64,000 bases of DNA, from contig CBDCSZ010000063.1 of the NCBI GenBank assembly GCA_965221935.1, positions 57,764 to 121,763 on the forward strand, written 5' to 3'. Position numbers and translations under genes: made by a program. The stretch is from Paracoccaceae bacterium. Lineage in GTDB: Bacteria; Pseudomonadota; Alphaproteobacteria; Rhodobacterales; Rhodobacteraceae. This document shows positions 7,465 through 29,699 of this stretch, piece by piece (the stretch's first letter is position 1; each line of letters starts with the position of its first letter). A model generated the notes under the pieces. The model ran no database searches. It was not told where the DNA came from and saw only the letters and a list, made by a program, of their open reading frames with translations.

Positions 7465-7557
7465 CAGTAACTCCCTGGTTGGCTGTTCTATGGACAATCA
7501 GACAATCCGGTGACAAGACTAAGGTTATCGGATCAGCGAGACCACCGGGAGAAAACA

Positions 7558-8472: not shown

Positions 8473-8514
8473 ATCTGAACCCAGGGCGCCGCACAGGCGC
8501 TCTGCGCACATTTA

Positions 8515-14760: not shown

Positions 14761-15220
14761 TGCTGTTCTCCTTGTGATCGGGAAATCGGTTGTGCGCAGG
14801 CTTCCGCAGCCGTCCGGTTCAGTGCCTGAACTGTTTGGAGAAACAGTCAAGCGGATTCTTCAAATCGCCGCAGCTTTGGATATGGATGTGGAGCCCCGGC
14901 GGCAATGCGGTGTCCACGATAAACACGTAACCGCACTGGCAGCCCCCAGGCGATTCTTCCGGTGAGTTGTTTAAACCGATCTTCAGTGCGCCGTGGAAAG
15001 GCGCGTTTTCCTTGTGGGTGCGAAACCCATTCAGCAATTGTCGCTTCGGTTGTTGCGTGATTGGCATGGTTTCCGAGATGTTCAGGATGGATTTCGGCAG
15101 CCGGTAATTTTTGACTTGCAGAGGGCGTGACCGGGGCGTAAAGGGATCGCATTCAATTGGGAATTTTCCCGTGATCTAATCTGGTTTCGGCAAAGCCCCA
15201 TACTCTTGGAGCAAGTGGAG

Positions 15221-15416
15221 CGGGCTCTGCCTTCCGCGAACAAAGGGGCGGGCTCTGCCTTCCGCGAACAAAGGGGCGGGCTCTGCCTTCCGCGAACAAA
15301 GGGGCGGGCTCTGCCTTCCGCGAACAAAGGGGCGGGCTCTGCCTTCCGCGAACAAAGGGGCGGGCTCTGCCTTCCGCGAACAAAGGGGCGGGCTCTGCCT
15401 TCCGCGAACAAAGGGA
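15221..15416. repeat. perfect tandem repeat, 7 x 28 bp (unit cgggctctgccttccgcgaacaaagggg)
   Basis: Unit starts were counted at 15221, 15249, 15277, 15305, 15333, 15361 and 15389. All copies are identical except the last base of copy 7. The array ends inside the GGGAGGA Shine-Dalgarno of the SBP gene at 15425. Confidence 0.97.
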
Positions 15417-15424
15417 GGAATATC

Positions 15425-17470
15425 ATGTTTTCCAGAATCTTTATGATTGGCGCCGCAGCGGTGTTTACGGCCGGCGCCGCATTGGCAGACTGTCCTGCCG
15501 TCACTGTGGCTGACCCAATGGGAGTTCCGGCAGGGGCCTTTCCACAGCAATATGAACTCGCTGAATTCGAAGAGCTTGCCAACTGCAAGTTGACATTCAG
15601 CGCCAACCCGGACATCGCTGCGCTCAATGCCCGGATTCGCGGCAATCCGGAATTGCCGCCCTTGGCGGAGCGGCTTCCGGAAGAGCCCTTGGTCTATGCG
15701 CCGTACCATTCGATCGGGAAATATGGCGGTACGCTCAGAGGGATGTCGAATGCGACAGAATCAGGGACGTCCGACTTTCTGTCAACACGCCACGCCACTC
15801 TGGTCCGATATCTCGACGATCTGCAGACCATCGTTCCGAACGTGGCCAAGAGCTGGGAGTGGAATGATGACTTCACCCAGGTGACGTTCGTCCTGCGCAA
15901 GGGCCACAAGTGGTCCGACGGAGCGCCGTTTTCCGCGGACGATGTCAAGTTCTGGTATGACAACCTGGCGCTCGATCCCAAGGTCATCGCAAGGCCAAGG
16001 TCTGGGTGGCTGGTGGCCGGCGAGAGAATGACCGTGGATGTGATCGACCCGCAGACGGTGCGTTTCAATCTTCCGGCGCCGAAACCGGGACTGCTCGCCC
16101 TCTTCGCGTCTGAGGGATGGGGGGTGTCCTTCCGACCCAAGCACTTCCTCGGCCGGTACCACCCGGATCTCAATCCTGACGCCGACAAGCTGGCGCAGGA
16201 CGCCGGATTTGAAGACGGTCTGGCTGTCCTTGCCGCCTATTACGGCAGTACCGATTGGAACGATTCCCCGTCGCCGCTGCTCAACAGCCCGGATAGGGTG
16301 GCCAACCTGCCGGCAGACGTCGTGCCGACACTGGAAGCGCATATCACCATTTCAGACAGGGCGACCGGCCGGCACTTCGTTGCCAATCCGTATTTCCACA
16401 TTGTCGATACGCAAGGCAACCAGTTGCCGTACATCAACGAGCAGGACGAGGTTTACATCAACGACACCGAAGTCCGGGTCCTGAAACTGATCAACGCGGA
16501 AGTGGACTACAAATCCCAGTCCCTGGAACTGCCGACAGCGCCGCTGCTGCTCGAAAACCAGGAAAAAGGCGATTACACGATCCACTTGAAGCCGGGAATC
16601 GGCGCTCCCAGTTTCTCGTTCAACGTGACGTCGGATGACCTTGAAAAGCGGAAGGTGTTTGGCGACTTCAGGTTCCGCCAGGCAATGTCGGTGGCGATCA
16701 ACCGTGATCAGATCAATGAAGTCGCTTTCTTCGGTCTGGGAACTCCACGGCAGCATATCGGGTTTTCGCCCAAGCCGGACTTCATCGATGACAAGTGGCT
16801 GACCTACTTCACACAGTACGATCCGGACATGGCGAACTCGCTGCTTGACGAGATCGGCATGGTCGACACCGGCGGTGACGGTTTCCGGGAATTGCCGAAC
16901 GGTGAGAAAATCACGCTGAATATTCAGTTTGCGAATCAGGGCATCCCCGTACAGGTCGTCGAACTGGTCGCCAACGACTGGGCCGAAGTCGGGGTGCAGA
17001 CGACCGTCAAGGAAGTCACGCCGGACGAGTACCGGTCGGCACAGTCGGCGAACCTGCTGGATGTCGGGGCATGGGGCCGAGGGGTGCCGCTGGCGCTCAC
17101 TTTGGGCAACAACCAAGAGTGGGTGCCGCCGTTCTCTTCCTATTTCGGCCACCGGCAAGGCATGCTCTGGGGCGAGTGGGTGCAATCTGACGGCGGCGCC
17201 GGCGCTGAGCCGCCCGATTATGCCAAGCAGCTGATGGATGACATAGGCGCCTTCCAGTCCGCGCCGATTGGCTCCGACGAGTTCAAGGCGTTGGGTCAGC
17301 GGATGGTCAAGAACATGACCGAGAATCTGCTGTTCATTGGCACCGTGATTGGGCCGCTGCCGATCTACCATCGAAACGCGCTCAAGAATTTCGTGGAATT
17401 CCAGACTCAAGGCCACGCCTACTACCGGACTTACCCGTATCGCGCGACGCAGTGGTACTTTGACGAGTGA
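15425..17470 (+). CDS. ABC transporter substrate-binding protein, family 5 (Dpp/Opp-like), first gene of operon
   Basis: ORF 15206..17470. I chose ATG 15425 after GGGAGGA. A signal peptide is present (MFSRIFMIGAAAVFTAGAALA). It is a paralog of 268..2301. Confidence 0.9.
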   Translation: MFSRIFMIGAAAVFTAGAALADCPAVTVADPMGVPAGAFPQQYELAEFEELANCKLTFSANPDIAALNARIRGNPELPPLAERLPEEPLVYAPYHSIGKYGGTLRGMSNATESGTSDFLSTRHATLVRYLDDLQTIVPNVAKSWEWNDDFTQVTFVLRKGHKWSDGAPFSADDVKFWYDNLALDPKVIARPRSGWLVAGERMTVDVIDPQTVRFNLPAPKPGLLALFASEGWGVSFRPKHFLGRYHPDLNPDADKLAQDAGFEDGLAVLAAYYGSTDWNDSPSPLLNSPDRVANLPADVVPTLEAHITISDRATGRHFVANPYFHIVDTQGNQLPYINEQDEVYINDTEVRVLKLINAEVDYKSQSLELPTAPLLLENQEKGDYTIHLKPGIGAPSFSFNVTSDDLEKRKVFGDFRFRQAMSVAINRDQINEVAFFGLGTPRQHIGFSPKPDFIDDKWLTYFTQYDPDMANSLLDEIGMVDTGGDGFRELPNGEKITLNIQFANQGIPVQVVELVANDWAEVGVQTTVKEVTPDEYRSAQSANLLDVGAWGRGVPLALTLGNNQEWVPPFSSYFGHRQGMLWGEWVQSDGGAGAEPPDYAKQLMDDIGAFQSAPIGSDEFKALGQRMVKNMTENLLFIGTVIGPLPIYHRNALKNFVEFQTQGHAYYRTYPYRATQWYFDE

Positions 17471-17488
17471 TCGATTGACGCTATAAGT

Positions 17489-17515
17489 GAGGCGGGCGAG
17501 ATGTTCGCCCGCCTC
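17489..17515 (+). terminator. intercistronic stem-loop between SBP and permease genes (attenuator/RNA-stability element candidate)
   Basis: gaggcgggcga (17489-17499) and tcgcccgcctc (17505-17515) form a perfect 11-bp stem with a 5-nt loop, 19 nt after the SBP stop. There is no U-tract. It is conserved in the duplicated copy at 22449-22475. Confidence 0.5.
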
Positions 17516-17568
17516 TGTCGTGGAAAGGGGGTCGGTCGCCTCAGGGCGATCTGACTTTGGGGAGCCGC

Positions 17569-18570
17569 ATGCAGTTTGCCAGATTCGCTTTCGTGCGCGC
17601 AGTCCTGGCAATCTTCACCCTGTTTATTGTTTCGCTGTTTGTGTTCAGCCTTATGGAGCTCGTTCCCGGCGACTGCGCGGAACGGTACCTTGCGTACAAG
17701 AACACTCAGGGCGCTCCGGTCACGATCGCCGACATTGAATCCGAGCGGATCCGGCTGGGACTGGACAAGCCGTTCATCGTCCGCTGGTCGACCTGGATCG
17801 GCAACGCATTCAGAGGCGAATTCGGCGAGAGCTGTATCCTGCGGGTCAACATCAACAGCCTGCTCGGCGACAAGTTCCTGATTTCGCTCGGGATCTGCAC
17901 GACGTCGCTGGTGCTGTCCTACCTGATCGCGGTGCCGGTGGGCATCCTGTCGGTGACCGCCAACAGCGCGCTGCTCAACAATTCACTGCGCTTCATCAGC
18001 TATCTCGGGCTGGCGCTGCCCAACTTCCTGCTGGCGCTGGTGATCATGCTGTTCTCCACGGTGTATTTCGGCGACAGCATGACCGGCCTCTTCTCAGCTG
18101 AATACCGCGACGCCGAATGGTCATACGGCCGGGTGCTCGATTTCCTGAACCATGTCTGGCTGCCGATCATTATCCTTGGCTGGTCGGCCACCGCCTTCGC
18201 CACCCAGACGGTGCGGGCGCTGATGGCGGACGAGATCAGCAAGCTGTACGTGACCGCGGCGGCTGCCCGCGGCGTGGCCGGCCGCCGCCTGATCCTGCGG
18301 TATCCGGCGCGGCACGCGCTGGGCCCGATCATCAACTCGATCGGATTTGACCTCAACCGGATATTCAGCGACCTGCCGATCGTCGCCTTGATCTTGACGC
18401 TGACGGAATCTGGATTGCTCCTGATCGATGCGCTGGCCAAATCGAACGACCAGCAATTGGCAGGCGCCATCATCTTTCTGATCACCGCCAGCATCATCGG
18501 CCTGAACTTCATCACGGATGTGCTGCTCGCTCTGATCGACCCGCGCATCCGGCGCAGCATCCTGAGGTAA
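17569..18570 (+). CDS. ABC transporter permease (DppB/OppB-like)
   Basis: ATG 17569 follows GGGGAG. The protein is multi-TM and ends with the typical ...DPRIR tail of DppB-type permeases. Confidence 0.9.
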   Translation: MQFARFAFVRAVLAIFTLFIVSLFVFSLMELVPGDCAERYLAYKNTQGAPVTIADIESERIRLGLDKPFIVRWSTWIGNAFRGEFGESCILRVNINSLLGDKFLISLGICTTSLVLSYLIAVPVGILSVTANSALLNNSLRFISYLGLALPNFLLALVIMLFSTVYFGDSMTGLFSAEYRDAEWSYGRVLDFLNHVWLPIIILGWSATAFATQTVRALMADEISKLYVTAAAARGVAGRRLILRYPARHALGPIINSIGFDLNRIFSDLPIVALILTLTESGLLLIDALAKSNDQQLAGAIIFLITASIIGLNFITDVLLALIDPRIRRSILR

Positions 18571-18575
18571 ACGCA

Positions 18576-19739
18576 ATGGCGGACATCGCAGAAGTCAGGC
18601 CGGATGCCGGTCCCGAGGTCGACCAGAAACTCAAGGAAGCGTATTTCACCGCCTCCCAGAGCCAGCTGGTCTGGGCCCGGTTCCGCCGCATCAGGTCGGC
18701 CATGGTTGCGGCGTACATCCTGATCTTCCTGATCACCTGCGGGCTGTTTGCGCCTTTTCTCTCGCCCTACGATCCGACCATCGCCGGCCGGAACAAGGAA
18801 TACCTGAACGGGGCGCCGCAGATCCCCAAATTCTGCGACGAAAACGGCTGTTCATGGCGCCCCTTCATCTACACCTATGAGCGAACGCGGTCGATCAAGA
18901 CCAATTTCCGCTGGGTCACCGAGGTGAACCGGGACAAGCGGCGCTACGTGACGCTGCTGCCGAAGGGATCCGAATACAGGCTGCTCCGGATTCCATTCCT
19001 TTCCTTCGACCGGCATCTGTTCGGCGTGGATCAAGGGAAGATTCACATTTTCGGAACCAATGCCGCCGGCAAGGATATATTTTCCCGGACCCTGCACGCC
19101 ATCAACACCACGCTTGCGGTCGGCACGATCGGAGTGCTGATCTCCTTTGTGCTGGCGCTGATCATTGGCGGCATCTCGGGCTATTTCGGCGGGTTCATCG
19201 ACTCGCTGCTGCAGATGCTGATGGACGCCGTCAAAGTCGTGCCGTCAATTCCCATGATCATGGCCCTGGCGGCGTTCGCCCCGGACGAATGGAGCGCCGA
19301 GACACGGTTCTTTTTCATCGCGGTCATACTTGGCTTCGTCGGCTGGACGACGCTGGCGCGCCGTATCCGGACCCATCTGCTGGCGGAGCGCAACCAGGAA
19401 TATGTGCTGGCGGCGCAGCTGTGCGGAGCATCCTCCGGCCACGTCATCCGCCGTCACCTGCTGCCGAGCTTCACCAGCTACATCATTGTCGACCTGGTGA
19501 TCTCGTTTCCGTACATGGTGCTGGGGGAAACGGCGCTGAGCTTTATCGGCCTGGGCCTCAAGGATCCCGTCAATTCGCTCGGTGTCATGCTGCAGAACGT
19601 CACCAACGCCGACGTGCTGCTGAATTATCAGTGGTATTTCATTCCGGTCCTGTTCTTCATCACCCTGGTGCTGGCCTTCGTTTTTGTCGGCGACGGGCTG
19701 CGCGACGCCGCCGACCCCTACGCGGAAATCCAGAAATAA
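18576..19739 (+). CDS. ABC transporter permease (DppC/OppC-like, long N-terminal extension)
   Basis: 387 aa with a C-terminal ABC transmembrane type-1 region (..LARRIRTHLLAERNQEYVLAAQLCGAS..). It ends with the typical DGLRDAADP tail. The gap from the upstream gene is 5 nt. Confidence 0.9.
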   Translation: MADIAEVRPDAGPEVDQKLKEAYFTASQSQLVWARFRRIRSAMVAAYILIFLITCGLFAPFLSPYDPTIAGRNKEYLNGAPQIPKFCDENGCSWRPFIYTYERTRSIKTNFRWVTEVNRDKRRYVTLLPKGSEYRLLRIPFLSFDRHLFGVDQGKIHIFGTNAAGKDIFSRTLHAINTTLAVGTIGVLISFVLALIIGGISGYFGGFIDSLLQMLMDAVKVVPSIPMIMALAAFAPDEWSAETRFFFIAVILGFVGWTTLARRIRTHLLAERNQEYVLAAQLCGASSGHVIRRHLLPSFTSYIIVDLVISFPYMVLGETALSFIGLGLKDPVNSLGVMLQNVTNADVLLNYQWYFIPVLFFITLVLAFVFVGDGLRDAADPYAEIQK

Positions 19740-20734
19740 TGCCGCTGCTTGACGTCGAAAACCTGACCCTGCAGTTCGACACCGACGAGGGAAGGGTCAC
19801 GGCCGTCGAGGAGTTCTCGCTGAGCCTGGAGGCCGGCGAAATCGTCGGCCTTGTGGGCGAGAGCGGCTCCGGCAAGTCCGTCACCGCCAAGTCGCTGATG
19901 AAGCTCAACGCCGGCAATGCGGTCTACAGCGGAGAAACCGGGATCACGCTGCATCTTGAGCAAGGTCCGGTCGACATCATGAGCCTCAGGTCGGCCAGGG
20001 AACTGCAGCTCGTGCGCGGCGGCGCCATCTCGATGATTTTCCAGGAACCGATGGCGAGCTTTGCGCCGGCGCTGACGGTCGGCGACCAGATGGTCGAGCA
20101 GCTGCAGATCCACACCGACATGTCGCCCGCAGAGTGCCGCACCCTGTCTATCGACATGCTCGAGAGGGTCGGAATCGCCGATGCCGCCAAGCGTTTCAGG
20201 CAGTTCGCCTTCGAGCTGTCCGGCGGCATGCGGCAGCGGGCAATGATCGCCATGGCGCTGTCGACGCGGCCGAAGCTGTTGATCGCCGATGAGCCGACAA
20301 CCGCCCTCGACGTCACCATTCAGGCCCAGGTGATCGACCTGATGAAGGACCTGGTTCAGGAATTCGGAATGGCGATCATCTTCATCACCCACGATCTCGG
20401 AGTGGTGGCGCAGACCGCCGATACCGTCGCCGTGATGTATCTCGGCCGGCTGGTCGAGAAAGGGCCGGTGCAGGAAGTCATCAAGAATCCTTCCCATCCC
20501 TACACCAGGGGACTGCTCGAAGCCCTGCCGCGGCTGTCCGATCTTGACGCGCCGCTGACGCCGGTGCCGGGCGACATACCCTCGCCGCTGGAGCGGCCGG
20601 CCGGCTGCGTGTTCCAGACCCGCTGCCCGTCACTGGTCGGAAACGTGTGCCGGTCGGTGATACCGGACTTCCGGACCATCGGGCCGCGGCACCGCTCGGC
20701 GTGCCATCTGGTTGCGGCGGAGCGGGCGGCATGA
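19739..20734 (+). CDS. ABC transporter ATP-binding protein (DppD/OppD-like)
   Basis: ATG 19739 overlaps the TAA of the previous gene. Walker A is GESGSGKS and the signature is LSGGMRQR. The C-terminal Cys-rich oligopeptide-transporter tail reads CVFQTRCP...C...C. Confidence 0.9.
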   Translation: MPLLDVENLTLQFDTDEGRVTAVEEFSLSLEAGEIVGLVGESGSGKSVTAKSLMKLNAGNAVYSGETGITLHLEQGPVDIMSLRSARELQLVRGGAISMIFQEPMASFAPALTVGDQMVEQLQIHTDMSPAECRTLSIDMLERVGIADAAKRFRQFAFELSGGMRQRAMIAMALSTRPKLLIADEPTTALDVTIQAQVIDLMKDLVQEFGMAIIFITHDLGVVAQTADTVAVMYLGRLVEKGPVQEVIKNPSHPYTRGLLEALPRLSDLDAPLTPVPGDIPSPLERPAGCVFQTRCPSLVGNVCRSVIPDFRTIGPRHRSACHLVAAERAA

Positions 20735-21732
20735 GCCGCGACGTCCTGATTTCCGCCCGAAACCTTTCCGTCCGGTTTCCGCTTCGCGGCGGTCTTTTTG
20801 AGGAGAAGACCTATGTGCGCGCGGTGGAAAATGTCAGCATCGACATCGAAAAAGGGAAGTTCTTCGGCCTCGTCGGTGAATCCGGCTCCGGCAAGACGAC
20901 GCTCGGCCGGGCCCTGCTGCTGGCCAATCCGATCACGGAGGGCGAAGTCACCTATTCCGACGGCCAGGTGAGCTATGACCTGCGGAATATCACCGCACAG
21001 CAGCGCCGCGATTATTATTCACGGGCCCAGCTGATCTTCCAGGATCCATATGCGGCGCTCAGCCCGCGCATGACCGTCCGGGACATCATCGCCGAGCCGC
21101 TCGAAGTGATGAGGCTGACCCGGTCGCGGGCCGAAACCGACGAAAGAGTGCGCGAGTTCGCCGCCAAGTGCCGGTTGAACCTGGAGCACCTGCGGCGGTT
21201 TCCGCATGCGTTTTCGGGCGGCCAGCGCCAGCGGATATCGATAGCCCGGGCATTGGTGTCGCGGCCGCGGTTCGTGGTCGCCGACGAAAGCGTCGCGGCG
21301 CTCGATGTCTCGATCCAGGCCGATGTGCTCAATCTCCTGAAATCCATTCAGCGCGAGCTCGGCCTCACCTTCCTGTTCATCAGCCACGATCTGAGCGTGG
21401 TGGCGCATATCTGTGACCATGTCGCGCTGATGTATTTCGGGCGGCTGGTTGAGACCGCCCCGACGCGGCGCCTTTTTGCGAACCCGAAACACCCCTATAC
21501 CAAGGCCCTGCTGTCGGCCATTCCCTCGCTCGACCCGGACGTGCGCGGCACAGGGCAGAAGCTCGAGGGCGAGATTCCGTCACAGACGAATCCGCCGCCC
21601 GGCTGCAAGTTCCAGACCCGCTGCCCGTTTGCGGTCGATCACTGCCGGGAAGAGGAACCGGCGCTGGAACCCGTCGAGGGAGAACACAATGTCGCCTGCC
21701 ACAGGTGGCGGGAACTCGAGGCCGCCGCCTGA
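20731..21732 (+). CDS. ABC transporter ATP-binding protein (DppF/OppF-like)
   Basis: ATG 20731 forms an ATGA overlap with the upstream stop. Walker A is GESGSGKTT and the signature is FSGGQRQR. The C-terminal tail reads CKFQTRCPFAVDHC. Confidence 0.9.
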   Translation: MSRDVLISARNLSVRFPLRGGLFEEKTYVRAVENVSIDIEKGKFFGLVGESGSGKTTLGRALLLANPITEGEVTYSDGQVSYDLRNITAQQRRDYYSRAQLIFQDPYAALSPRMTVRDIIAEPLEVMRLTRSRAETDERVREFAAKCRLNLEHLRRFPHAFSGGQRQRISIARALVSRPRFVVADESVAALDVSIQADVLNLLKSIQRELGLTFLFISHDLSVVAHICDHVALMYFGRLVETAPTRRLFANPKHPYTKALLSAIPSLDPDVRGTGQKLEGEIPSQTNPPPGCKFQTRCPFAVDHCREEEPALEPVEGEHNVACHRWRELEAAA

Positions 21733-21884
21733 CGGGAATGCGCCTTCCGAACCGGCCAGGCGCAGTTCCAGACAGAATTCAGACCGGACCCGGCGCCGGG
21801 GCGATACCGGGTTCGCATCATCCGGATTGGCGCAGGCCGGCGGCGGAAAGCGTCCGCCTCCGAATTTGAAAGCGCCAGGCACTG

Positions 21885-22430
21885 CGATGACAAGTGGCTG
21901 ACCTACTTCACACAGCACGACCCGGACATGGCGAACTCGCTGCTTGACGAGACCGGCATGGTCGACACCGGCGGCGACGGTTTCCGGGAATTGCCGAACG
22001 GTGAGAAAATCAGGCCGAGTATGCGGTTTGCGAATCCGGGCCTCCCAGGTGTGGTCGTCGAACTTGCCGCCAGCGGCTGGGCCGAAGTCGGGGTGCAGAC
22101 GACCGTCAAGGAAATCACGCCGGACGAGTGCCGGTCGGCGCCGCTGGTGATCACGCTGGATGCCAACGAGCGCTGGGTGCCGCGCCGTCCTCTTCCTATT
22201 TCGGCCACCGGCAAGGCATGCTTTGGGCCGAGTGGGTGGAAAGTGGCGGCGCCGCCGGCGCTGAGCCGCCCGATTATGTCAAGCAGCTGATCGATGACAT
22301 CGGCGCCTTCCAGTCCGCGCTGATCTGCCATCGAAACGCGCTCAAGAATTTCGTGGAATTCCAGACTCAATCCTACTTCTACCACCGGACTTGCCCATAT
22401 CGCGCGACGCAGCGGCACTTTGACGAGTGA
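21885..22430 (+). pseudogene. 3' fragment of family-5 SBP gene (duplicate, deleted and frameshifted)
   Basis: Translations in two frames (21928..22290 and 22128..22430) match the last ~225 residues of the SBP at 15425..17470 (DKWLTYFTQ...GDGFRELPNGEKI..., ...HRNALKNFVEFQTQ...). There are internal deletions and a frame change. Confidence 0.85.
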
Positions 22431-22448
22431 TCGGTCAACGCTATAAGT

Positions 22449-22475
22449 GAGGCGGGCGAGATGTTCGCCCGCCTC
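22449..22475 (+). terminator. duplicate of the intercistronic stem-loop
   Basis: Same gaggcgggcga/tcgcccgcctc hairpin as 17489-17515, at offset 4960. Confidence 0.45.
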
Positions 22476-22528
22476 TGTTGTGGAAAGGGGGTCGGTCGCC
22501 TCAGGGCGATCTGACTTTGGGGAGCCGC

Positions 22529-23530
22529 ATGCAGTTTGCCAGATTCGTTCTCGTGCGCGCAGTCCTGGCAATCTTCACCCTGTTTATTGTTTCGCTGTTT
22601 GTGTTCAGCCTTATGGAGCTCGTTCCCGGCGACTGCGCGGAACGGTACCTCGCGTGGAAGACCACCCTAGGCGCTACGATCACGTTCGCCGACATTGAAT
22701 CCGAGCGGATCCGGATGGGACTGGACAAGCCGTTCATCGTCCGCTGGTCGACCTGGATCGGCAACGCATTCAGAGGCGAATTCGGCGAGAGCTGCATCCT
22801 GCGGAAGAACATCAACAGCCTGCTCGGCGACAAGTTCCTGATTTCGCTCGGGATCTGCACGGCGTCGCTGGTGCTGTCCTACCTGATCGCGGTGCCGGTG
22901 GGCATCCTGTCGGTGACCGCCAACAGCGCGCTGCTCAACAATTCACTGCGCTTCATCAGCTATCTCGGGCTGGCGCTGCCCAACTTCCTGCTGGCGCTGG
23001 TGATCATGCTGTTCTCCACGGTGTATTTCGGCGACAGCATGACCGGCCTCTTCTCGGCTGAATACCGCGACGCCGAATGGTCAACCGGCCGGGTGCTCGA
23101 TTTCCTGAACCATGTCTGGCTGCCGATCATTATCCTTGGCTGGTCGGCCACCGCCTTCGCCATCCAGACGGTGCGGGCGCTGATGGCGGATGAGATCAGC
23201 AAGCTGTACGTGACCGCGGCGGCTGCCCGCGGCGTCGCCGGCCGCCGCCTGATCCTGCGGTATCCGGCGCGGCACGCGCTGGGCCCGATCATCAACTCGA
23301 TCGGATTTGACCTCAACCGGATATTCAGCGAGCTGCCGATCGTCGCCTTGATCTTGACGCTGACAGAATCTGGATTGCTCCTGATCGATGCGCTGGCCAG
23401 ATCGAACGACCAGCATTTGGCAGGCGCCATCATCTTTCTGCTCACCGCCAGCATCATCGGCCTGAACTTCATCACGGATGTGCTGCTCGCTCTGATCGAC
23501 CCGCGCATCCGGCGCAGCATCCTGAGGTAA
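22529..23530 (+). CDS. ABC transporter permease (DppB-like), diverged duplicate, frame intact
   Basis: Same length and frame as 17569..18570. I counted about 17 amino-acid differences by eye, clustered near the N-terminus (LAYKNTQGAPVTIADIES versus LAWKTTLGATITFADIES). It is probably not part of a complete transporter. Confidence 0.7.
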   Translation: MQFARFVLVRAVLAIFTLFIVSLFVFSLMELVPGDCAERYLAWKTTLGATITFADIESERIRMGLDKPFIVRWSTWIGNAFRGEFGESCILRKNINSLLGDKFLISLGICTASLVLSYLIAVPVGILSVTANSALLNNSLRFISYLGLALPNFLLALVIMLFSTVYFGDSMTGLFSAEYRDAEWSTGRVLDFLNHVWLPIIILGWSATAFAIQTVRALMADEISKLYVTAAAARGVAGRRLILRYPARHALGPIINSIGFDLNRIFSELPIVALILTLTESGLLLIDALARSNDQHLAGAIIFLLTASIIGLNFITDVLLALIDPRIRRSILR

Positions 23531-23535
23531 ACGCA

Positions 23536-23607
23536 ATGGCGGACATCGCAGAAGTCAGGCCGGATGCCGCCGGCAAGGATATATTTTCCCGGACCCTGCA
23601 CGCCATC
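23536..23607 (+). pseudogene. DppC-like permease gene, duplicate copy, 5' piece (internal 456-nt deletion, then IS insertion)
   Basis: The first 33 nt equal 18576-18608. The sequence then jumps to the equivalent of 19065 onward, and is interrupted at 23607/23608 by the IS. Confidence 0.85.
23600..23607. repeat. target-site duplication, left copy (acgccatc)
   Basis: An identical 8-mer lies at 26909-26916, immediately outside the other IS end. The paralogous uninterrupted site at 19096-19103 has a single copy. Confidence 0.9.
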
Positions 23608-23632
23608 GTAAGCGGGTAAACGGCGACGTCCG
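23608..23632. repeat. IS66 terminal inverted repeat (left)
   Basis: gtaagcgggtaaacggcgacgtccg. The reverse complement of 26884-26908 is gtaagcgggtaaatggcgacgtccg, giving one mismatch. Confidence 0.9.
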
Positions 23633-23792
23633 TTGATTTAGCGTGGTTTCTGGTGTCGTTCTGGCGGCTGCGGCCGATCCTGCGGCTTGTGCATTCTCCG
23701 ATTTGTTGCTGCTGCGCCGTTTTTTTCGTTTGACACGATAGGCCGCCGGGGCTATTCCCGGCGAATCAAGACGAACCGTCGGGAGATCGGCC

Positions 23793-24458
23793 ATGGCATC
23801 ATGGTATGGTTCCAAAGGGACGACAGGGCTCTGCCAGCCGCTCATCGCGATGTGTCCGCCGCATTCCGTATTTTTGGAAACACATCTTGGGGGCGGTGCG
23901 ATCATGAAGCGCAAGCCTCCGGCGCTCAGGAACATCGGCATCGATCTCAACCGCCGGGCCATCGACAGCTTCAGCTGCGACTATCCGGTCGAGCTTCACC
24001 ACGGCTGCTGCCACGCGTTCCTGTCCGATTTCGACTTCGACGGCCGCGAACTGGTCTACAGCGACCCGCCCTACGTGCAGTCGGCGCGCAAGTCGCAGCG
24101 CCGCTATCGCTTCGACTATACGGACGCCGACCATGCCGCGCTTCTCGGCATTCTGAAGTCGCTGCCCTGTTCGGTGATGGTCTCCGGCTATCCGTCCCGG
24201 CTCTACGACGAACACCTCTGCGAGTGGCGTTCGCTGGAGATCCAGGTCAACAACCAGTCCTGCATCGTCACCGAGAAGCTGTGGTTCAACTTCGCGCCCG
24301 ACCGGGTGCACTGGGCGGCCTTCGCCGGACGGAACTTCACCCACCGCCAGGTCGTCAAGCGCAAGGCGGCGAGCTGGGGGCGGCGCTACGCGGCGATGCC
24401 GCCGGGCGAGCGGCTGGCGGCGCTGGCGGCGATCATGGCGGTGGAGGCGGAGGAATGA
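23793..24458 (+). CDS. DNA N6-adenine methyltransferase, D12 class (Dam-like), IS cargo
   Basis: 221 aa. The N-terminus has Y-G-S-K and the AdoMet-binding-like ETHLGGGA. The catalytic DPPY is present (VYSDPPYV). The start is preceded by GGGAGA. The stop overlaps the tnpC start (ATGA at 24455-24458). Confidence 0.8.
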   Translation: MASWYGSKGTTGLCQPLIAMCPPHSVFLETHLGGGAIMKRKPPALRNIGIDLNRRAIDSFSCDYPVELHHGCCHAFLSDFDFDGRELVYSDPPYVQSARKSQRRYRFDYTDADHAALLGILKSLPCSVMVSGYPSRLYDEHLCEWRSLEIQVNNQSCIVTEKLWFNFAPDRVHWAAFAGRNFTHRQVVKRKAASWGRRYAAMPPGERLAALAAIMAVEAEE

Positions 24459-26194
24459 GCGGGATCGACCCGTCCGACCCGGATGCGGTCCGCCGTCGGC
24501 TTGACGGGCTCCGTTCGGAATTCGCGGGGCTGAGCGGCGGCGGCCTGCTGCGGGGCGTCGCCTCCCTGTTCAGGGAGTTGTTCGGGCTTGCCGGGACGCA
24601 GTCGACGATCATTGCCGCGCTGCAGGACAAGCTCACCGAGGAAGTGGCGAAGAACAGTGCGCTTTGCGACCAGCTCGCCCGCTATGAGCGCCAGCAGCAC
24701 GGCCGGAGCTCGGAGAAGCGCCGCAATGCCGGCACCGCCTCCGAAGGTGGTGCTTCCGATGGTGCCGCAACGCCGGATGCCGGGGAGGATGAACCCGAAG
24801 CCGGAAAGACAACCGGAAAGAAAGCCGGAAAGAAGCCCCAGGGCGGCGTCAAGGGGCGCAAGAAGGATCGCGGCGATGCCGTCAACGGCGCCGGGCTGCG
24901 CTTCGGCCCCGAGGCAACGGTGATCGACATCGATGTGATGCCGCCGGAGATCGACGGGCTGGCGGCGGGCGAGTTCGAGCTCATCTCAGAGCGGGTGTGC
25001 TGCAAGCTGGCATCGGTGCCGATCCGCCACGTGGTCCTGCGTTACCATTACAAGAAGGCGAAGATCATGTCCTCCGGCGCCCTGGTCTGCGCCCCGGCCG
25101 TCGAGAGCGTGTTCAAGAATTCCTGCGCGGACGTGACCTTTATCGCCGGAATGCTGGTCGACAAGTTCGCCTGGCATCTCCCCCTCCACCGCCAGCGCCA
25201 GATGCTGGCCGGGAGCGGGATCACCGTCAACCGCAGGTCCTTGAGTGGCTGGGCCAACCGGGCGATCTCGCTGCTGGAGCCGGTGTTCGAGGCGCAGCGC
25301 CGCTCGGTTCTGGAAAGCTCCGTCATCGTCATGGACGAGACGCCGGTGCGGGTCGGGCGCGACCCCGCCAAGCCGGGCAAGATGAAACAATGCTGCTACT
25401 GGCCGGCGCTCGGCGACCGGGACGAGGTTGTGTTCCACTTCGCGCCCTCCCGCGCCCACCACCATGTCGAGCGGTTCCTCGGCGATTTCGAGGGCACGCT
25501 GGTCAGCGACGGCTACGGCGCCTATGCGGCGTACGCCGAGACGCGGGGGGCGGCGGTGAGACAGCAAAACTGCTGGGCGCATTCCAGACGCAATTTCGAG
25601 GAGCAGCTGGACAACTGCCCGGTGTTGGCCGGGGAGGCGCTGGACCTGATCGGGGGCATGTGCGGGATCGAGAAGGAATTCCGACTCCGGCCGCCGCCGG
25701 AACTCCTTGTGGCGCGGCGCATACACACCCGCCCGCTGGTCGACGCCTTCTGGCTATGGTGCGCGCAGACGCTCGGGGATCCGGCGCTGACGCCGAAGCA
25801 CCCGATCCGCCGGGCGGTCAACTGTGCCGTCGAACGCCGGCAGTCCCTCGAGGTGTTCCTCGACGACCCGCTGGTGCCGATCGATACCAATGGTGTCGAG
25901 CGCGCACTGCGCCGCGTCAAGCCGGGGCAGAAGAACTGGCTGTTTTCCTGGACGGAATCGGGCGCGTACAACGTGGGGATCGTCAACAGCCTCACCGCAA
26001 CCTGCCAGCTGCACGAGATCAGCCCCCTTGTGTATCTGACCGACGTCCTCCAGCGCATCGACACCCACCCGGCCGACCGGATCCACGAACTGACGCCGCG
26101 CCTGTGGAAGGAGCTCTTCGCCGACGCCCCGATGACCGGCATCGACATGACCGTCGTCCGGGCTCACCCGGACGCCACTTGGGGACCGTCGTAA
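24455..26194 (+). CDS. tnpC: IS66-family DDE transposase (TnpC)
   Basis: ATG 24455 follows GGAGG. Family strings seen: LPLHRQ, VMDETPV, SDGYGAY, CWAHSRRNF, TNGVERALR, and the C-terminal ELTPRLW. Only the part of the 835-aa ORF 23687..26194 downstream of 24455 is family-like. Confidence 0.85.
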   Translation: MSGIDPSDPDAVRRRLDGLRSEFAGLSGGGLLRGVASLFRELFGLAGTQSTIIAALQDKLTEEVAKNSALCDQLARYERQQHGRSSEKRRNAGTASEGGASDGAATPDAGEDEPEAGKTTGKKAGKKPQGGVKGRKKDRGDAVNGAGLRFGPEATVIDIDVMPPEIDGLAAGEFELISERVCCKLASVPIRHVVLRYHYKKAKIMSSGALVCAPAVESVFKNSCADVTFIAGMLVDKFAWHLPLHRQRQMLAGSGITVNRRSLSGWANRAISLLEPVFEAQRRSVLESSVIVMDETPVRVGRDPAKPGKMKQCCYWPALGDRDEVVFHFAPSRAHHHVERFLGDFEGTLVSDGYGAYAAYAETRGAAVRQQNCWAHSRRNFEEQLDNCPVLAGEALDLIGGMCGIEKEFRLRPPPELLVARRIHTRPLVDAFWLWCAQTLGDPALTPKHPIRRAVNCAVERRQSLEVFLDDPLVPIDTNGVERALRRVKPGQKNWLFSWTESGAYNVGIVNSLTATCQLHEISPLVYLTDVLQRIDTHPADRIHELTPRLWKELFADAPMTGIDMTVVRAHPDATWGPS

Positions 26195-26529
26195 CGCCTG
26201 CGGCGGCGCCGGACGGTGACGTCGATGCCGTCGATCAGCGCCATCAGCTCGGTCGATGACAATGCGAGCGCCGCATGGCCAGACGCCGGCGGCGGGGCGA
26301 ACAGGCCCTGCTCCAGGCGCTTGGACCAGATGAAGAAGCCGCCCCGCTCGAAGCCGAGGATCTTCACGATCGTCCGTCGCCGATTGACGAACACGCACCA
26401 GCGCCCGTCAGCCGGGTTGCACCCGAGATGGCCCGACACCAGGGCGCACAGCCCGTCGAAACTGCGCCGCATGTCGGCCGGATCACTCGACAGCCAGATG
26501 CCGCCCCGCGGCCAGCCGCCAAGCATCAC
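26164..26529 (-). CDS. tnpB: IS66 Orf2 (TnpB) family protein
   Basis: 121 aa. DMRRSFDGLCALV...VFVNRRRTIVKILGFERGGFFIWSKRLEQGLF... matches the IS66 Orf2 pattern I know (DMRKGFDGL..VF.N.R....KIL......SKRLE.G.F). There is an ATGA-type overlap with tnpA. Confidence 0.85.
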   Translation of the reverse strand: MMLGGWPRGGIWLSSDPADMRRSFDGLCALVSGHLGCNPADGRWCVFVNRRRTIVKILGFERGGFFIWSKRLEQGLFAPPPASGHAALALSSTELMALIDGIDVTVRRRRRRYDGPQVASG

Positions 26530-26810
26530 GAACGCCGAACCCGCAGGACGACCCCGTCGCCCAGCTCGAGCTCGACATCCCAGCCGGACACCGCAGGCGG
26601 CGCCAGCTCGACGAAGGAACCCTTCCCGCCCCCGAGGCAGAGACGGCGCCGCCAGTTCCCGAAGGTCTTCAACGACAGCTCACGGGACTCGCAAAACTCC
26701 CGCCGCGACAGCCCCGAACGCTCGAAATCCGCCATGATGCTGTTCCACTCCGCCTCACTGCGCACCACCGGCGCAGGACGGGAACCAGCCGAACCATTCA
26801 AACCTGACAT
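26526..26810 (-). CDS. tnpA: IS66 Orf1 (TnpA) helix-turn-helix protein
   Basis: 94 aa. Contains EWNSIMADFERSGLSRREFCESRELSLKTFGNWRRRL, an HTH-like segment. The start lies 98 nt from the IS end and GGAGG lies upstream. Confidence 0.75.
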   Translation of the reverse strand: MSGLNGSAGSRPAPVVRSEAEWNSIMADFERSGLSRREFCESRELSLKTFGNWRRRLCLGGGKGSFVELAPPAVSGWDVELELGDGVVLRVRRS

Positions 26811-26883
26811 GACAATATCCTCCGATCATTGATCAATGACCGGAATTATCCCCATGCACCCCCCGCACGGGCAACCGAATTAT

Positions 26884-26908
26884 CGGACGTCGCCATTTAC
26901 CCGCTTAC
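26884..26908. repeat. IS66 terminal inverted repeat (right)
   Basis: cggacgtcgccatttacccgcttac, the reverse-complement partner of 23608-23632. Confidence 0.9.
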
Positions 26909-26916
26909 ACGCCATC
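26909..26916. repeat. target-site duplication, right copy (acgccatc)
   Basis: See 23600-23607. Confidence 0.9.
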
Positions 26917-27552
26917 AACACCACGCTTGCGGTCGGCACGATCGGAGTGCTGATCTCCTTTGTGCTGGCGCTGATCATTGGCGGCATCTCGGGCTATTTC
27001 GGCGGGTTCATCGACTCGCTGCTGCAGATGCTGATGGACGCCGTCAAAGTCGTGCCGTCAATTCCCATGATCATGGCCCTGGCGGCGTTCGCCCCGGACG
27101 AATGGAGCGCCGAGACACGGTTCTTTTTCATCGCGGTCATACTTGGCTTCGTCGGCTGGACGACGCTGGCGCGCCGTATCCGGACCCATCTGCTGGCGGA
27201 GCGCAACCAGGAATATGTGCTGGCGGCGCAGCTGTGCGGAGCATCCTCCGGCCACGTCATCCGCCGTCACCTGCTGCCGAGCTTCACCAGCTACATCATT
27301 GTCGACCTGGTGATCTCGTTTCCGTACATGGTGCTGGGGGAAACGGCGCTGAGCTTTATCGGCCTGGGCCTCAAGGATCCCGTCAATTCGCTCGGTGTCA
27401 TGCTGCAGAACGTCACCAACGCCGACGTGCTGCTGAATTATCAGTGGTATTTCATTCCGGTCCTGTTCTTCATCACTCTGGTGCTGGCCTTCGTTTTTGT
27501 CGGCGACGGGCTGCGCGACGCCGCCGACCCCTACGCGGAAATCCAGAAATAA
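26909..27552 (+). pseudogene. DppC-like permease gene, duplicate copy, 3' piece
   Basis: Colinear with 19096..19739. I found one silent difference. ORF 26836..27552 starts inside the IS end and reads into this piece. Confidence 0.85.
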
Positions 27553-28547
27553 TGCCGCTGCTTGACGTCGAAAACCTGACCCTGCAGTTCGACACCGACG
27601 AGGGAAGGGTCACGGCCGTCGAGGAGTTCTCGCTGAGCCTGGAGGCCGGCGAAATCGTCGGCCTTGTGGGCGAGAGCGGCTCCGGCAAGTCCGTCACCGC
27701 CAAGTCGCTGATGAAGCTCAACGCCGGCAATGCGGTCTACAGCGGAGAAACCGGGATCACGCTGCATCTTGAGCAAGGTCCGGTCGACATCATGAGCCTC
27801 AGGTCGGCCAGGGAACTGCAGCTCGTGCGCGGCGGCGCCATCTCGATGATTTTCCAGGAACCGATGGCGAGCTTTGCGCCGGCGCTGACGGTCGGCGACC
27901 AGATGGTCGAGCAGCTGCAGATCCACACCGACATGTCGCCCGCAGAGTGCCGCACCCTGTCTATCGACATGCTCGAGAGGGTCGGAATCGCCGATGCCGC
28001 CAAGCGTTTCAGGCAGTTCGCCTTCGAGCTGTCCGGCGGCATGCGGCAGCGGGCAATGATCGCCATGGCGCTGTCGACGCGGCCGAAGCTGTTGATCGCC
28101 GATGAGCCGACAACCGCCCTCGACGTCACCATTCAGGCCCAGGTGATCGACCTGATGAAGGACCTGGTTCAGGAATTCGGAATGGCGATCATCTTCATCA
28201 CCCACGATCTCGGAGTGGTGGCGCAGACCGCCGATACCGTCGCCGTGATGTATCTCGGCCGGCTGGTCGAGAAAGGGCCGGTGCAGGAAGTCATCAAGAA
28301 TCCTTCCCATCCCTACACCAGGGGACTGCTCGAAGCCCTGCCGCGGCTGTCCGATCTTGACGCGCCGCTGACGCCGGTGCCGGGCGACATACCCTCGCCG
28401 CTGGAGCGGCCGGCCGGCTGCGTGTTCCAGACCCGCTGCCCGTCACTGGTCGGAAACGTGTGCCGGTCGGTGATACCGGACTTCCGGACCATCGGGCCGC
28501 GGCACCGCTCGGCGTGCCATCTGGTTGCGGCGGAGCGGGCGGCATGA
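27552..28547 (+). CDS. ABC transporter ATP-binding protein (DppD-like), near-identical duplicate
   Basis: The protein string is identical by eye to 19739..20734. Confidence 0.8.
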   Translation: MPLLDVENLTLQFDTDEGRVTAVEEFSLSLEAGEIVGLVGESGSGKSVTAKSLMKLNAGNAVYSGETGITLHLEQGPVDIMSLRSARELQLVRGGAISMIFQEPMASFAPALTVGDQMVEQLQIHTDMSPAECRTLSIDMLERVGIADAAKRFRQFAFELSGGMRQRAMIAMALSTRPKLLIADEPTTALDVTIQAQVIDLMKDLVQEFGMAIIFITHDLGVVAQTADTVAVMYLGRLVEKGPVQEVIKNPSHPYTRGLLEALPRLSDLDAPLTPVPGDIPSPLERPAGCVFQTRCPSLVGNVCRSVIPDFRTIGPRHRSACHLVAAERAA

Positions 28548-29545
28548 GCCGCGACGTCCTGATTTCCGCCCGAAACCTTTCCGTCCGGTTTCCGCTTCGC
28601 GGCGGTCTTTTTGAGGAGAAGACCTATGTGCGCGCGGTGGAAAATGTCAGCATCGACATCGAAAAAGGGACGTTCTTCGGCCTCGTCGGTGAATCCGGCT
28701 CCGGCAAGACGACGCTCGGCCGGGCCCTGCTGCTGGCCAATCCGATCACGGAGGGCGAAGTCACCTATTCCGACGGCCAGGTGAGCTATGACCTGCGGAA
28801 TATCACCGCACAGCAGCGCCGCGATTATTATTCACGGGCCCAGCTGATCTTCCAGGATCCATATGCGGCGCTCAGCCCGCGCATGACCGTCCGGGACATC
28901 ATCGCCGAGCCGCTCGAAGTGATGAGGCTGACCCGGTCGCGGGCCGAAACCGACGAAAGAGTGCGCGAGTTCGCCGCCAAGTGCCGGTTGAACCTGGAGC
29001 ACCTGCGGCGGTTTCCGCATGCGTTTTCGGGCGGCCAGCGCCAGCGGATATCGATAGCCCGGGCATTGGTGTCGCGGCCGCGGTTCGTGGTCGCCGACGA
29101 AAGCGTCGCGGCGCTCGATGTCTCGATCCAGGCCGATGTGCTCAATCTCCTGAAATCCATTCAGCGCGAGCTCGGCCTCACCTTCCTGTTCATCAGCCAC
29201 GATCTGAGCGTGGTGGCGCATATCTGTGACCATGTCGCGCTGATGTATTTCGGGCGGCTGGTTGAGACCGCCCCGACGCGGCGCCTTTTTGCGAACCCGA
29301 AACACCCCTATACCAAGGCCCTGCTGTCGGCCATTCCCTCGCTCGACCCGGACGTGCGCGGCACAGGGCAGAAGCTCGAGGGCGAGATTCCGTCACAGAC
29401 GAATCCGCCGCCCGGCTGCAAGTTCCAGACCCGCTGCCCGTTTGCGGTCGATCACTGCCGGGAAGAGGAACCGGCGCTGGAACCCGTCGAGGGAGAACAC
29501 AATGTCGCCTGCCACAGGTGGCGGGAACTCGAGGCCGCCGCCTGA
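28544..29545 (+). CDS. ABC transporter ATP-binding protein (DppF-like), near-identical duplicate
   Basis: The protein is identical to 20731..21732 except for one residue (EKGKFFGL versus EKGTFFGL). Confidence 0.8.
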   Translation: MSRDVLISARNLSVRFPLRGGLFEEKTYVRAVENVSIDIEKGTFFGLVGESGSGKTTLGRALLLANPITEGEVTYSDGQVSYDLRNITAQQRRDYYSRAQLIFQDPYAALSPRMTVRDIIAEPLEVMRLTRSRAETDERVREFAAKCRLNLEHLRRFPHAFSGGQRQRISIARALVSRPRFVVADESVAALDVSIQADVLNLLKSIQRELGLTFLFISHDLSVVAHICDHVALMYFGRLVETAPTRRLFANPKHPYTKALLSAIPSLDPDVRGTGQKLEGEIPSQTNPPPGCKFQTRCPFAVDHCREEEPALEPVEGEHNVACHRWRELEAAA

Positions 29546-29699
29546 CGGGAATGCGCCTTCCGAACCGGCCAGGCGCAGTTCCAGACAGAATTCAGACCGG
29601 ACCCGGCGCCGGGGCGATACCGGGTTCGCATCATCCGGATTGGCGCAGGCCGGCGGCGGAAAGCGTCCGCCTCCGAATTTGAAAGCGCCAGGCACTTGG

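Follow-up and report, generated by a model that had tools for sequence, protein, structure and literature searches.

A conserved Dam-like methyltransferase gene and a candidate operator shared by insertion sequences of different transposase families

Insertion sequences (ISs) of the IS66 family typically have terminal repeats that start with GTAAGCG and generate an 8-bp target duplication, and to our knowledge the control of their transposition is essentially unknown. In restriction-modification systems, some methyltransferases and controller proteins regulate themselves via palindromic operators. An established link between adenine methylation and transposition is the control of IS10/Tn10, IS50/Tn5 and IS903 by host Dam (PMC9296519). 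ISs that bear passenger genes, termed 'tIS', include an IS66-family element, ISPa75 with fosZ (PMC12888890), and the same source quotes ends of the form GTAAGCGTCC... for other IS66 members. Here we describe an IS66-family element with a gene for a Dam-like methyltransferase homologue immediately 5' of its transposase gene. The element, which is complete, has four genes and occupies positions 23608-26908 (3301 bp) of a 64,000-nt stretch of DNA from Paracoccaceae bacterium (GCA_965221935.1, contig CBDCSZ010000063.1, positions 57,764-121,763 of the forward strand). We call this whole stretch the window, and coordinates without a locus prefix, here and in a preliminary description of it, are window positions. 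We propose, with a probability of about 0.5, that the methyltransferase gene and an inverted repeat in its promoter form a portable, self-regulated cassette of methyltransferase and operator that would place the transposase under feedback.

The locus shares much with canonical IS66 and ISBst12 elements, namely an IS66-type DDE transposase, TnpB and TnpA homologues, GTAAGCG-type ends and 8-bp duplications. It differs from canonical IS66 in having an extra gene 5' of the transposase gene and an inverted tnpA-tnpB pair; the transposase, terminal repeats and duplication expected of the family are present, and the single orientation of tnpA, tnpB and tnpC is not. The nearest plasmid-borne TnpC relatives (~40% identity), in contrast, keep the canonical gene order and have no methyltransferase. 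As a separate observation, the closest canonical plasmid IS66 elements contain a fourth, unannotated open reading frame (ORF) of ~105 amino acids (aa) that overlaps the end of tnpC (L095:3993-4316 and L096:4023-4340). With the tIS group, and ISPa75 in particular, the element has in common that an IS66-family IS contains a gene beyond those for transposition. The passengers of tIS, however, lie downstream of the transposase gene, vary between close relatives and serve the host, whereas the methyltransferase gene lies upstream, is found in essentially all relatives rather than varying between close ones, is common to several IS families, is placed alike in four transposase lineages and brings the transposase promoter with it.

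Host Dam acting on IS10 and IS50 is the nearest functional analogy, and the logic that we propose is the same: methylation of a promoter adenine would limit transposase synthesis, possibly to the time after replication. The differences are that the enzyme here would be encoded by the element itself, that the candidate site is not GATC and that no such site lies in the terminal repeats. Restriction-modification control offers a further likeness, in that the promoter of a modification gene overlaps a symmetric site that co-evolves with the gene; here, however, there is no controller protein, no recognisable helix-turn-helix and no endonuclease partner, and the half-sites are 10 nt apart.

The methyltransferase gene is, we are confident, a selected and integral part of the element. 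A search of a protein collection returned 3124 relatives at E <= 0.001, and every one of the 120 best has an identity of 69% or more, most being ~220 aa long. A scan of genomes, one per species, yielded 382 encoding stretches, and among the best 80, from which neighbours were counted, the window-type tnpC lies directly 3' of the methyltransferase gene at 77 loci, mostly with convergent tnpB and tnpA. The same order of four genes, with the methyltransferase gene and tnpC facing tnpB and tnpA, recurs in multi-copy elements of other genomes and in ENA contigs, and some long-read metagenome-assembled genomes (MAGs) of Paracoccaceae and other Alphaproteobacteria contain at least 20 copies. Copies within a genome are 99.8-100% identical, each with a different 8-bp duplication, and the methyltransferase gene is under purifying selection (ratio of nonsynonymous to synonymous substitution rates, dN/dS, 0.19-0.37). 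Around a metagenome scan, an IS66-type transposase gene lies directly 3' of the methyltransferase gene at 69 of 82 typed loci. Since the gene occurs in other IS families and is missing from hardly any relative of this IS, we regard it as a core module and not as cargo.

The IS DNA has no match in PLSDB, and plasmid and phage records hold no methyltransferase more than 60% identical, the best of the 80 viral contigs kept reaching 50%. With no close plasmid, phage or viral match, the IS-borne clade is seen here only in genomes and metagenomes. A full-text literature search turned up neither an account of such an IS-encoded methyltransferase nor a report of methylation or DNA binding by any member of the family; the search did not extend to ISfinder and TnPedia, where prior curation is possible.

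The protein itself, encoded at 23793-24458 on the plus strand, is predicted to be a 221-aa homologue of S-adenosylmethionine (SAM)-dependent N6-adenine methyltransferases that resembles Dam and has no Dam-type target-recognition domain. Its N-terminus reads MASWYGSKG, and ETHLGGGA (aa 29-36) and DPPY (aa 91-94) follow. As in Dam, T4 Dam and DpnM, enzymes of the D12 class and alpha type, the order of motifs is GxK, E/D-x-F/L-x-G-x-G, an acidic residue closing strand 2, DPPY and an S-G/N-Y-P-S strand. A profile of the relatives finds its best sequence match among solved structures in DpnM (2dpm; E 1.2e-4), and the alignment falls into two pieces, residues 17-62 on DpnM 28-73 and residues 56-152 on DpnM 161-260. 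DpnM residues 74-160 are skipped, and only 40 residues lie between D51 and D91 of the ORF. In an AlphaFold model (predicted local distance difference test, pLDDT, 74.9), a seven-stranded methyltransferase fold with its strands in the expected order spans residues 14-165 and is followed by a basic, helical C-terminal extension of 55 aa. The top Foldseek matches of this model are complexes of E. coli Dam (E 1.3e-6; TM score 0.55, a moderate value), with DpnM at E 2.7e-5. The protein differs from the Dam family in lacking the ~87-aa domain, inserted between motifs III and IV, that reads GATC, and in place of this domain it has the C-terminal extension. A specificity for GATC therefore does not follow from the resemblance to Dam, and the modeled extension is the sole candidate for reading DNA sequence.

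Conservation of the active site suggests that the enzyme functions as such. Residues G6-S7-K8, E29, G33, G35, D51 and D91-P92-P93-Y94 are invariant in 62 IS-borne sequences. With two plasmid relatives added (43-48% identical), most of the key residues, including E29, G35, D51 and D91-Y94, are still invariant, and the remainder, G33 among them, are conserved at 90% or more. Because the SAM-binding and catalytic residues are invariant or nearly so, catalysis is likely to be under selection, and we consider it probable, from these alignments and the model, that the ORF encodes an active SAM-dependent adenine methyltransferase with a Dam-like core. On a point of annotation, gene callers often begin the gene at Met38, which gives 184-aa entries (P0027, P0058, P0277, P0278 and P0280) that lose the conserved N-terminal GSK and motif I; the conservation of residues 1-37 backs the long form.

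The sequence upstream of the gene is the second conserved feature. In the window, a -35 hexamer TTGACA (23730-23735, plus strand), conserved in the relatives, is followed after 17 nt by a -10 hexamer TATTCC (23753-23758, plus strand; family consensus TATGCT), the whole element at 23730-23758 being TTGACAcgATAGgccgccggggCTATtcc. Across the spacer runs an inverted repeat, ATAG-N10-CTAT (23738-23755), whose four-base arms at 23738-23741 and 23752-23755 form a candidate operator or methyltransferase target. TTGACA is found about 58-68 nt 5' of the start codon in 126 of 129 unique upstream regions, and the other three have TTGACG or none. When the 129 regions are collapsed to 84 unique cores, the profile consists of TTGACA (96-100%), one free base, a C, ATAG at positions 9-12 (90-100%), ten variable bases, CTA at positions 23-25 (94-100%) and then TGCTG. 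The family promoter accordingly has a perfect -35, a 17-nt spacer and TATGCT, and CATAG-N10-CTATG extends over the spacer into the start of the -10. Of the 84 cores, 45 have fully complementary arms and another 28 have arms with a single mismatch; in all six cores with G at position 9, position 26 is C, and this CGTAG/CTACG pair is a compensatory variant. Since a sigma-70 promoter has no sequence requirement at the left arm, the conservation of that arm needs an explanation beyond promoter function. A scan for consensus promoters missed the left-end promoter of the window, as TATTCC is without the final T; the case for this promoter rests on its conservation in relatives.

The repeat also moves with the gene. 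It accompanies the methyltransferase into ISKra4-linked and IS701-linked elements (L114 and L146), and it is found upstream of orphan relatives on plasmids (43-49% identical) that have no transposase, IncP-1-type plasmids having a doubly changed version, CATCG-N10-CGATG. Several plasmid and viral methyltransferase genes have two or three tandem copies of the repeat. These comparisons indicate that the conserved regulatory element is the ATAG-N10-CTAT inverted repeat in the promoter, and not GATC. Apart from this, the IS contains far fewer copies of GANTC, which CcrM of Alphaproteobacteria recognises, than expected (4 against 16 +/- 4), and among them GAATC at 23763 follows the -10 of this promoter at a distance of a few bases.

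At its 3' end the methyltransferase gene is joined to tnpC. The TGA of the former overlaps the ATG of the latter in ATGA (24455-24458), and a Shine-Dalgarno sequence for tnpC, GGAGG (24443-24447, plus strand), lies within the 3' end of the methyltransferase gene, 7 nt ahead of the ATG at 24455. This arrangement supports a translationally coupled pair that would be read from the left-end promoter, and both the coupling and the promoter are conserved in relatives.

The methyltransferase is associated with more than one kind of transposase. Partners were assigned at 82 loci (80 from the metagenome scan plus five genome loci that were re-examined): 63 are ISBst12-like IS66 transposases, 5 are of the window type, 3 belong to IS701, 1 to ISKra4 and 1 to another IS66 variant. 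At a few of the loci unrelated genes follow the methyltransferase gene, and these look like remnants. The second layout is exemplified by an element of 2339 bp, bounded by GTAACTACT ends and flanked by an 8-bp duplication, that contains only the methyltransferase gene and a gene for a 495-aa ISBst12-like transposase, and in this it resembles the single-gene ISBst12 type. Transposases of this group (~475-495 aa) match the window TnpC at 23-25% identity in short local BLASTP alignments (E 0.018-0.028), and the methyltransferases of the two layouts are 72-73% identical. The IS701-family and ISKra4-family partners were identified by NF049999 (2.9e-48) and NF033572 (1.6e-82), respectively. L126 and L146 represent one locus in related strains, and L147 alone is an independent second context. 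We found no convincing terminal repeats around the IS701-linked and ISKra4-linked elements, and because their ends could not be delimited, the placement of the methyltransferase gene inside them is inferred from adjacency.

In a neighbour-joining tree drawn without support values, the IS-borne proteins make up a single clade apart from the plasmid and phage relatives, and within it the IS701- and ISKra4-linked methyltransferases branch at three places from among those linked to ISBst12-like transposases. TnpC is less conserved than the methyltransferase in lineages C, D and F (0.55 against ~0.8 aa identity), whereas in lineage E the reverse holds, and this difference between lineages indicates an exchange of modules. 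Loss of the zinc finger from methyltransferase-linked TnpC was considered as a sign that the methyltransferase takes its place and set aside, the nearest canonical TnpCs being likewise without a zf-IS66 match. In addition, some ISBst12-like methyltransferase-bearing IS copies lie inside or beside restriction-modification and toxin-antitoxin loci (L003:1276-4727; L004:3056-4717 and 7167-10660; L005:7268-8382), which comprise type I hsdM/hsdS, a split N6_N4 methyltransferase with a ResIII helicase, and RES-Xre.

We propose that the methyltransferase and tnpC genes are transcribed from the one left-end promoter, with translation of tnpC coupled through ATGA, and that the methyltransferase acts on the repeat within this promoter; it may bind the repeat, methylate adenines of the arms, or do both. 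Among the arm adenines is the one at the second position of the -10 hexamer. Action on the repeat would limit the synthesis of methyltransferase and transposase together, while tnpA and tnpB would be expressed separately from the right end. That the methyltransferase is the factor acting on the repeat is suggested by its being the only protein common to all contexts in which the repeat occurs, and that the transposase comes under the same feedback follows from co-transcription and, for the window type, also from translational coupling. As the methyltransferase should diffuse, the feedback would respond to how many IS copies the cell contains in all. The activity of the enzyme, its target site and its effect on transcription and transposition are inferred here from comparative sequence evidence.

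A more elaborate version of this mechanism, which we think unlikely, is a self-contained epigenetic switch in which methylation of the repeat adenines turns the promoter off and the cassette moves between unrelated ISs. The methylated -10 adenine would be the base that RNA polymerase flips out; after replication, the -10 strand would be unmethylated in one of the two daughter duplexes, which would permit a brief burst of transposase; and through the amount of enzyme every copy would be informed of the IS copy number. This ready-made controller would have been taken up by each of four groups, the IS66-type, ISBst12-like, IS701 and ISKra4 elements.

Several observations weigh against the proposed cassette. 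The copy in the window has a weak -10, and over five bases its arms do not pair fully (GATAG against CTATT). Covariation in the family is partial, 5 of 11 C26 variants and most G26 variants being mismatched. Because the right arm overlaps the -10, promoter function explains part of its conservation, and only the left arm counts as independent evidence. The arms are 15 bp apart from centre to centre, which would put them on opposite faces of the helix and would be unusual for a dimeric repressor; this spacing fits two monomers better. Nor is the repeat universal in the wider family, the upstream regions of a group of P2-like phage relatives being organised differently. The tree cited above has no support values. 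Finally, in contrast to members of the Dam family, the 221-aa protein falls under the Pfam and TIGRFAM thresholds: PF02086 (MethyltransfD12), which covers aa 84-125 only, scores 14.7 bits where 22 are required, and the TIGR00571 Dam model reaches 23 bits, far short of its cut-off of 114.85. Some relatives have a faint precomputed PF02086 match. The preliminary description had called the protein a D12-type methyltransferase, and that assignment is supported: the match to the D12 hidden Markov model stays below threshold, but the profile and fold comparisons place the protein with Dam, with SAM-binding and DPPY motifs and catalytic residues intact on alignment.

The same description had read the gene as cargo, a Dam-like enzyme that might, were GATC its target, control transposition through GATC near translation starts, as Dam does on IS10 and IS50. 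Its landmarks are sound, as the protein motifs, the ORF, the ATGA overlap, GGAGG, the TTGACA-17-TATTCC promoter and three GATC sites all lie where it put them, and its further claims of coupling to tnpC, of a left-end promoter and of the absence of an endonuclease gene are borne out by the relatives and by our gene survey. Its GATC model draws on the sites at 23785-23788, between the GGGAG Shine-Dalgarno sequence and the methyltransferase ATG, and at 26824-26827 and 26831-26834; on TGATCGGAGG, which is common to 5 of 7 lineages at the tnpA ribosome-binding site; and on the many ISBst12-like elements with GATCC soon after the -10. We nevertheless judge this model, taken with an accidental capture of a Dam-type enzyme, highly improbable. 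Accidental capture is contradicted by the presence of the gene in essentially all relatives of the IS as well as in further IS families; far from being absent from other copies of the IS, as such a capture could have been, the ORF is found in them. The domain with which Dam and DpnM read GATC is missing. Lineages A, B, C, D and F lack the GATC at the methyltransferase start, and D and F also lack the one at tnpA, so the sites are not conserved in position, and neither the -35 and -10 hexamers nor the inverted repeats contain GATC. The IS has 29 GATC sites against 21 +/- 4 in shuffled sequences, which is within chance and no enrichment.

Two other explanations accept the conserved gene and assign it a different purpose. 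It might be a genome-wide orphan modification enzyme kept for the benefit of its carrier, through protection against restriction or through host gene expression, with the transposase merely sharing its self-controlled promoter. Relatives on conjugative plasmids and phages are presumed to act in this way, and the family resemblance is close: the nearest non-IS relatives (43-49% identical over their full length) are stand-alone 'DNA (adenine) methylase' genes on conjugative plasmids, found on IncP-1 pB12 beside upf31.0 and on Xanthomonas, sphingomonad and Shewanella plasmids, and 132 of 176 matching plasmid records are typed conjugative, IncP-1 among them. Similar genes occur in P2-like phages, such as Salmonella phages SEN4 and SEN5, and in viral contigs of ~30-37 kb. 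These orphans, for which we found no characterising report in the literature, have the same invariant residues, and many have CATAG-N10-CTATG or CATCG-N10-CGATG; since transposase-free relatives have the same type of repeat, autoregulation would predate capture by ISs. That several IS copies lie within the restriction-modification and defence loci noted above (L003, L004 and L005) would also suit such a role. The orphans differ, however, in lying outside ISs, with no adjacent transposase gene, and in grouping apart from the IS-borne clade. A genome-wide role leaves unexplained why the gene is always immediately 5' of the transposase gene, often with stop and start overlapping, and why at least four transposase lineages acquired it at the same position; moreover, the enzyme of a resident IS cannot protect incoming DNA at entry, and expansion to many copies adds no protection. 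We therefore find this explanation rather doubtful. The other view is that the protein is a partner of the transposase, with a DNA-binding or architectural role at the IS ends, in target choice or in base flipping within the transpososome, methyl transfer being secondary or lost. Tight coupling of the genes favours synthesis of both proteins in the same place, the canonical target-recognition domain is absent, the roles of TnpA and TnpB in IS66 are not established, and the ISBst12-like partners have no other accessory protein. Against this, the partners come from three IS families (IS66, IS701 and ISKra4), with two deeply divergent lineages within IS66, and the termini are not alike, being GTAAGCGG in window-type elements and GTAACTACT in ISBst12-like ones; because transposases and ends diverge in this way, a specific protein-protein or end-binding role is unlikely. 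The near invariance of the catalytic and SAM-binding residues, orphan relatives that function without a transposase, and the absence of the promoter motif from the IS ends likewise make a transposase partner very unlikely.

The remaining features of the element define it precisely. Its termini are 25-bp inverted repeats of the form GTAAGCGGGTAAA[C/T]GGCGACGTCCG: the left repeat, GTAAGCGGGTAAACGGCGACGTCCG (23608-23632, plus strand), and the right repeat (26884-26908, minus strand) agree at 24 of 25 positions, and GTAAGCGG.TAAA ends are also found in sister elements. The 8-bp duplication ACGCCATC lies at 23600-23607 and again at 26909-26916, and the octamer occurs once at the empty target site (19096-19103) in a paralogous copy of the interrupted permease gene, where the flanks are identical to those of the insertion. 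There, 19060-19103 equals 23564-23607, and 19095-21883 matches 26908-29696 at 99.9% identity (2789 bp). Because of this duplication and the uninterrupted target in the paralogous copy, the boundaries are exact. The tnpC gene (24455-26194, plus strand) encodes a 579-aa IS66-family DDE transposase that matches DDE_Tnp_IS66 (PF03050; 5.6e-75), NF033517 (2.2e-93; 313 bits against a cut-off of 180) and PF13817 (1.9e-11). Convergent with it on the minus strand, an arrangement kept in relatives, are tnpB (26164-26529), an IS66 Orf2-like gene of 121 aa (1e-26 with Pfam/NCBIfam) whose 3' end overlaps that of tnpC by 31 nt, and tnpA (26526-26810; 94 aa; NCBIfam IS66_ISAeme5_TnpA, 1e-14), which is read inward from the right end. 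Since tnpA and tnpB are inverted relative to tnpC, the element should have two inward-reading transcription units. A promoter-like site for the right-hand unit (TTGCCC, an 18-nt spacer and GATAAT; 26845-26874, minus strand) is partly conserved in an alignment of right ends. A direct repeat, GATAATTC(G/C)GGT, is present in two copies at 26845-26900, between the right inverted repeat and the tnpA start; one copy overlaps the predicted -10 GATAAT, and the repeat may bind an IS protein. An ORF survey of the element found no further credible gene and no endonuclease gene, and Rfam at E <= 1 found no known RNA element in or around it. The window contains one copy of the IS.

Related elements and the surroundings of the insertion present several further features. 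In one Paracoccaceae MAG many copies of a sister IS have a ~1.9-kb insertion in tnpC at about codon 312 (L027:7589-9498), which also occurs in L030, L033, L078, L080, L082-L084 and L086-L090. It is a group II intron in the sense orientation (157 bits to Rfam RF02005) and contains a 494-aa ORF, and it appears to have multiplied together with the sister IS. A metagenome contig (L185:6524-8365) has the same IS in the same permease gene, with an additional DDE_Tnp_1 and DruA-domain transposase gene between tnpC and tnpB. In the window, 16786-21883 and 21885-29696 are a tandem duplication of a peptide ABC-transporter (peptide-permease) operon, 91-96% identical in its left part and 99.9% over the last 2789 bp. 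The IS breaks the permease gene in the second operon copy only, from which ~450 bp (18610-19059 of the first) are also missing. Elsewhere, at 15189-15443, seven head-to-tail copies of a 28-nt unit, GGGCGGGCTCTGCCTTCCGCGAACAAAG, end just before an ATG; as no spacers separate the units, these repeats are not CRISPR-like.

The protein has a Dam-like fold and the element is a member of the IS66 family; what the comparison brings out beyond this is a conserved cassette of methyltransferase and candidate operator common to ISs of different families. The work also identifies a very small (~220 aa) Dam-like enzyme. Because these genes are currently annotated as 'DNA methylase' or left unnamed, and no NCBIfam model covers them, they can be confused with the restriction-modification complement of the host. 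They are a candidate explanation for orphan N6-methyladenine (m6A) motifs in genomes rich in these elements. If the proposed mechanism is true, a large, highly active and mostly environmental group of ISs would bring its own methyltransferase instead of relying on host Dam. The reuse of one candidate regulatory cassette by transposases of different families is a concrete and testable case of modular evolution in transposon regulation.

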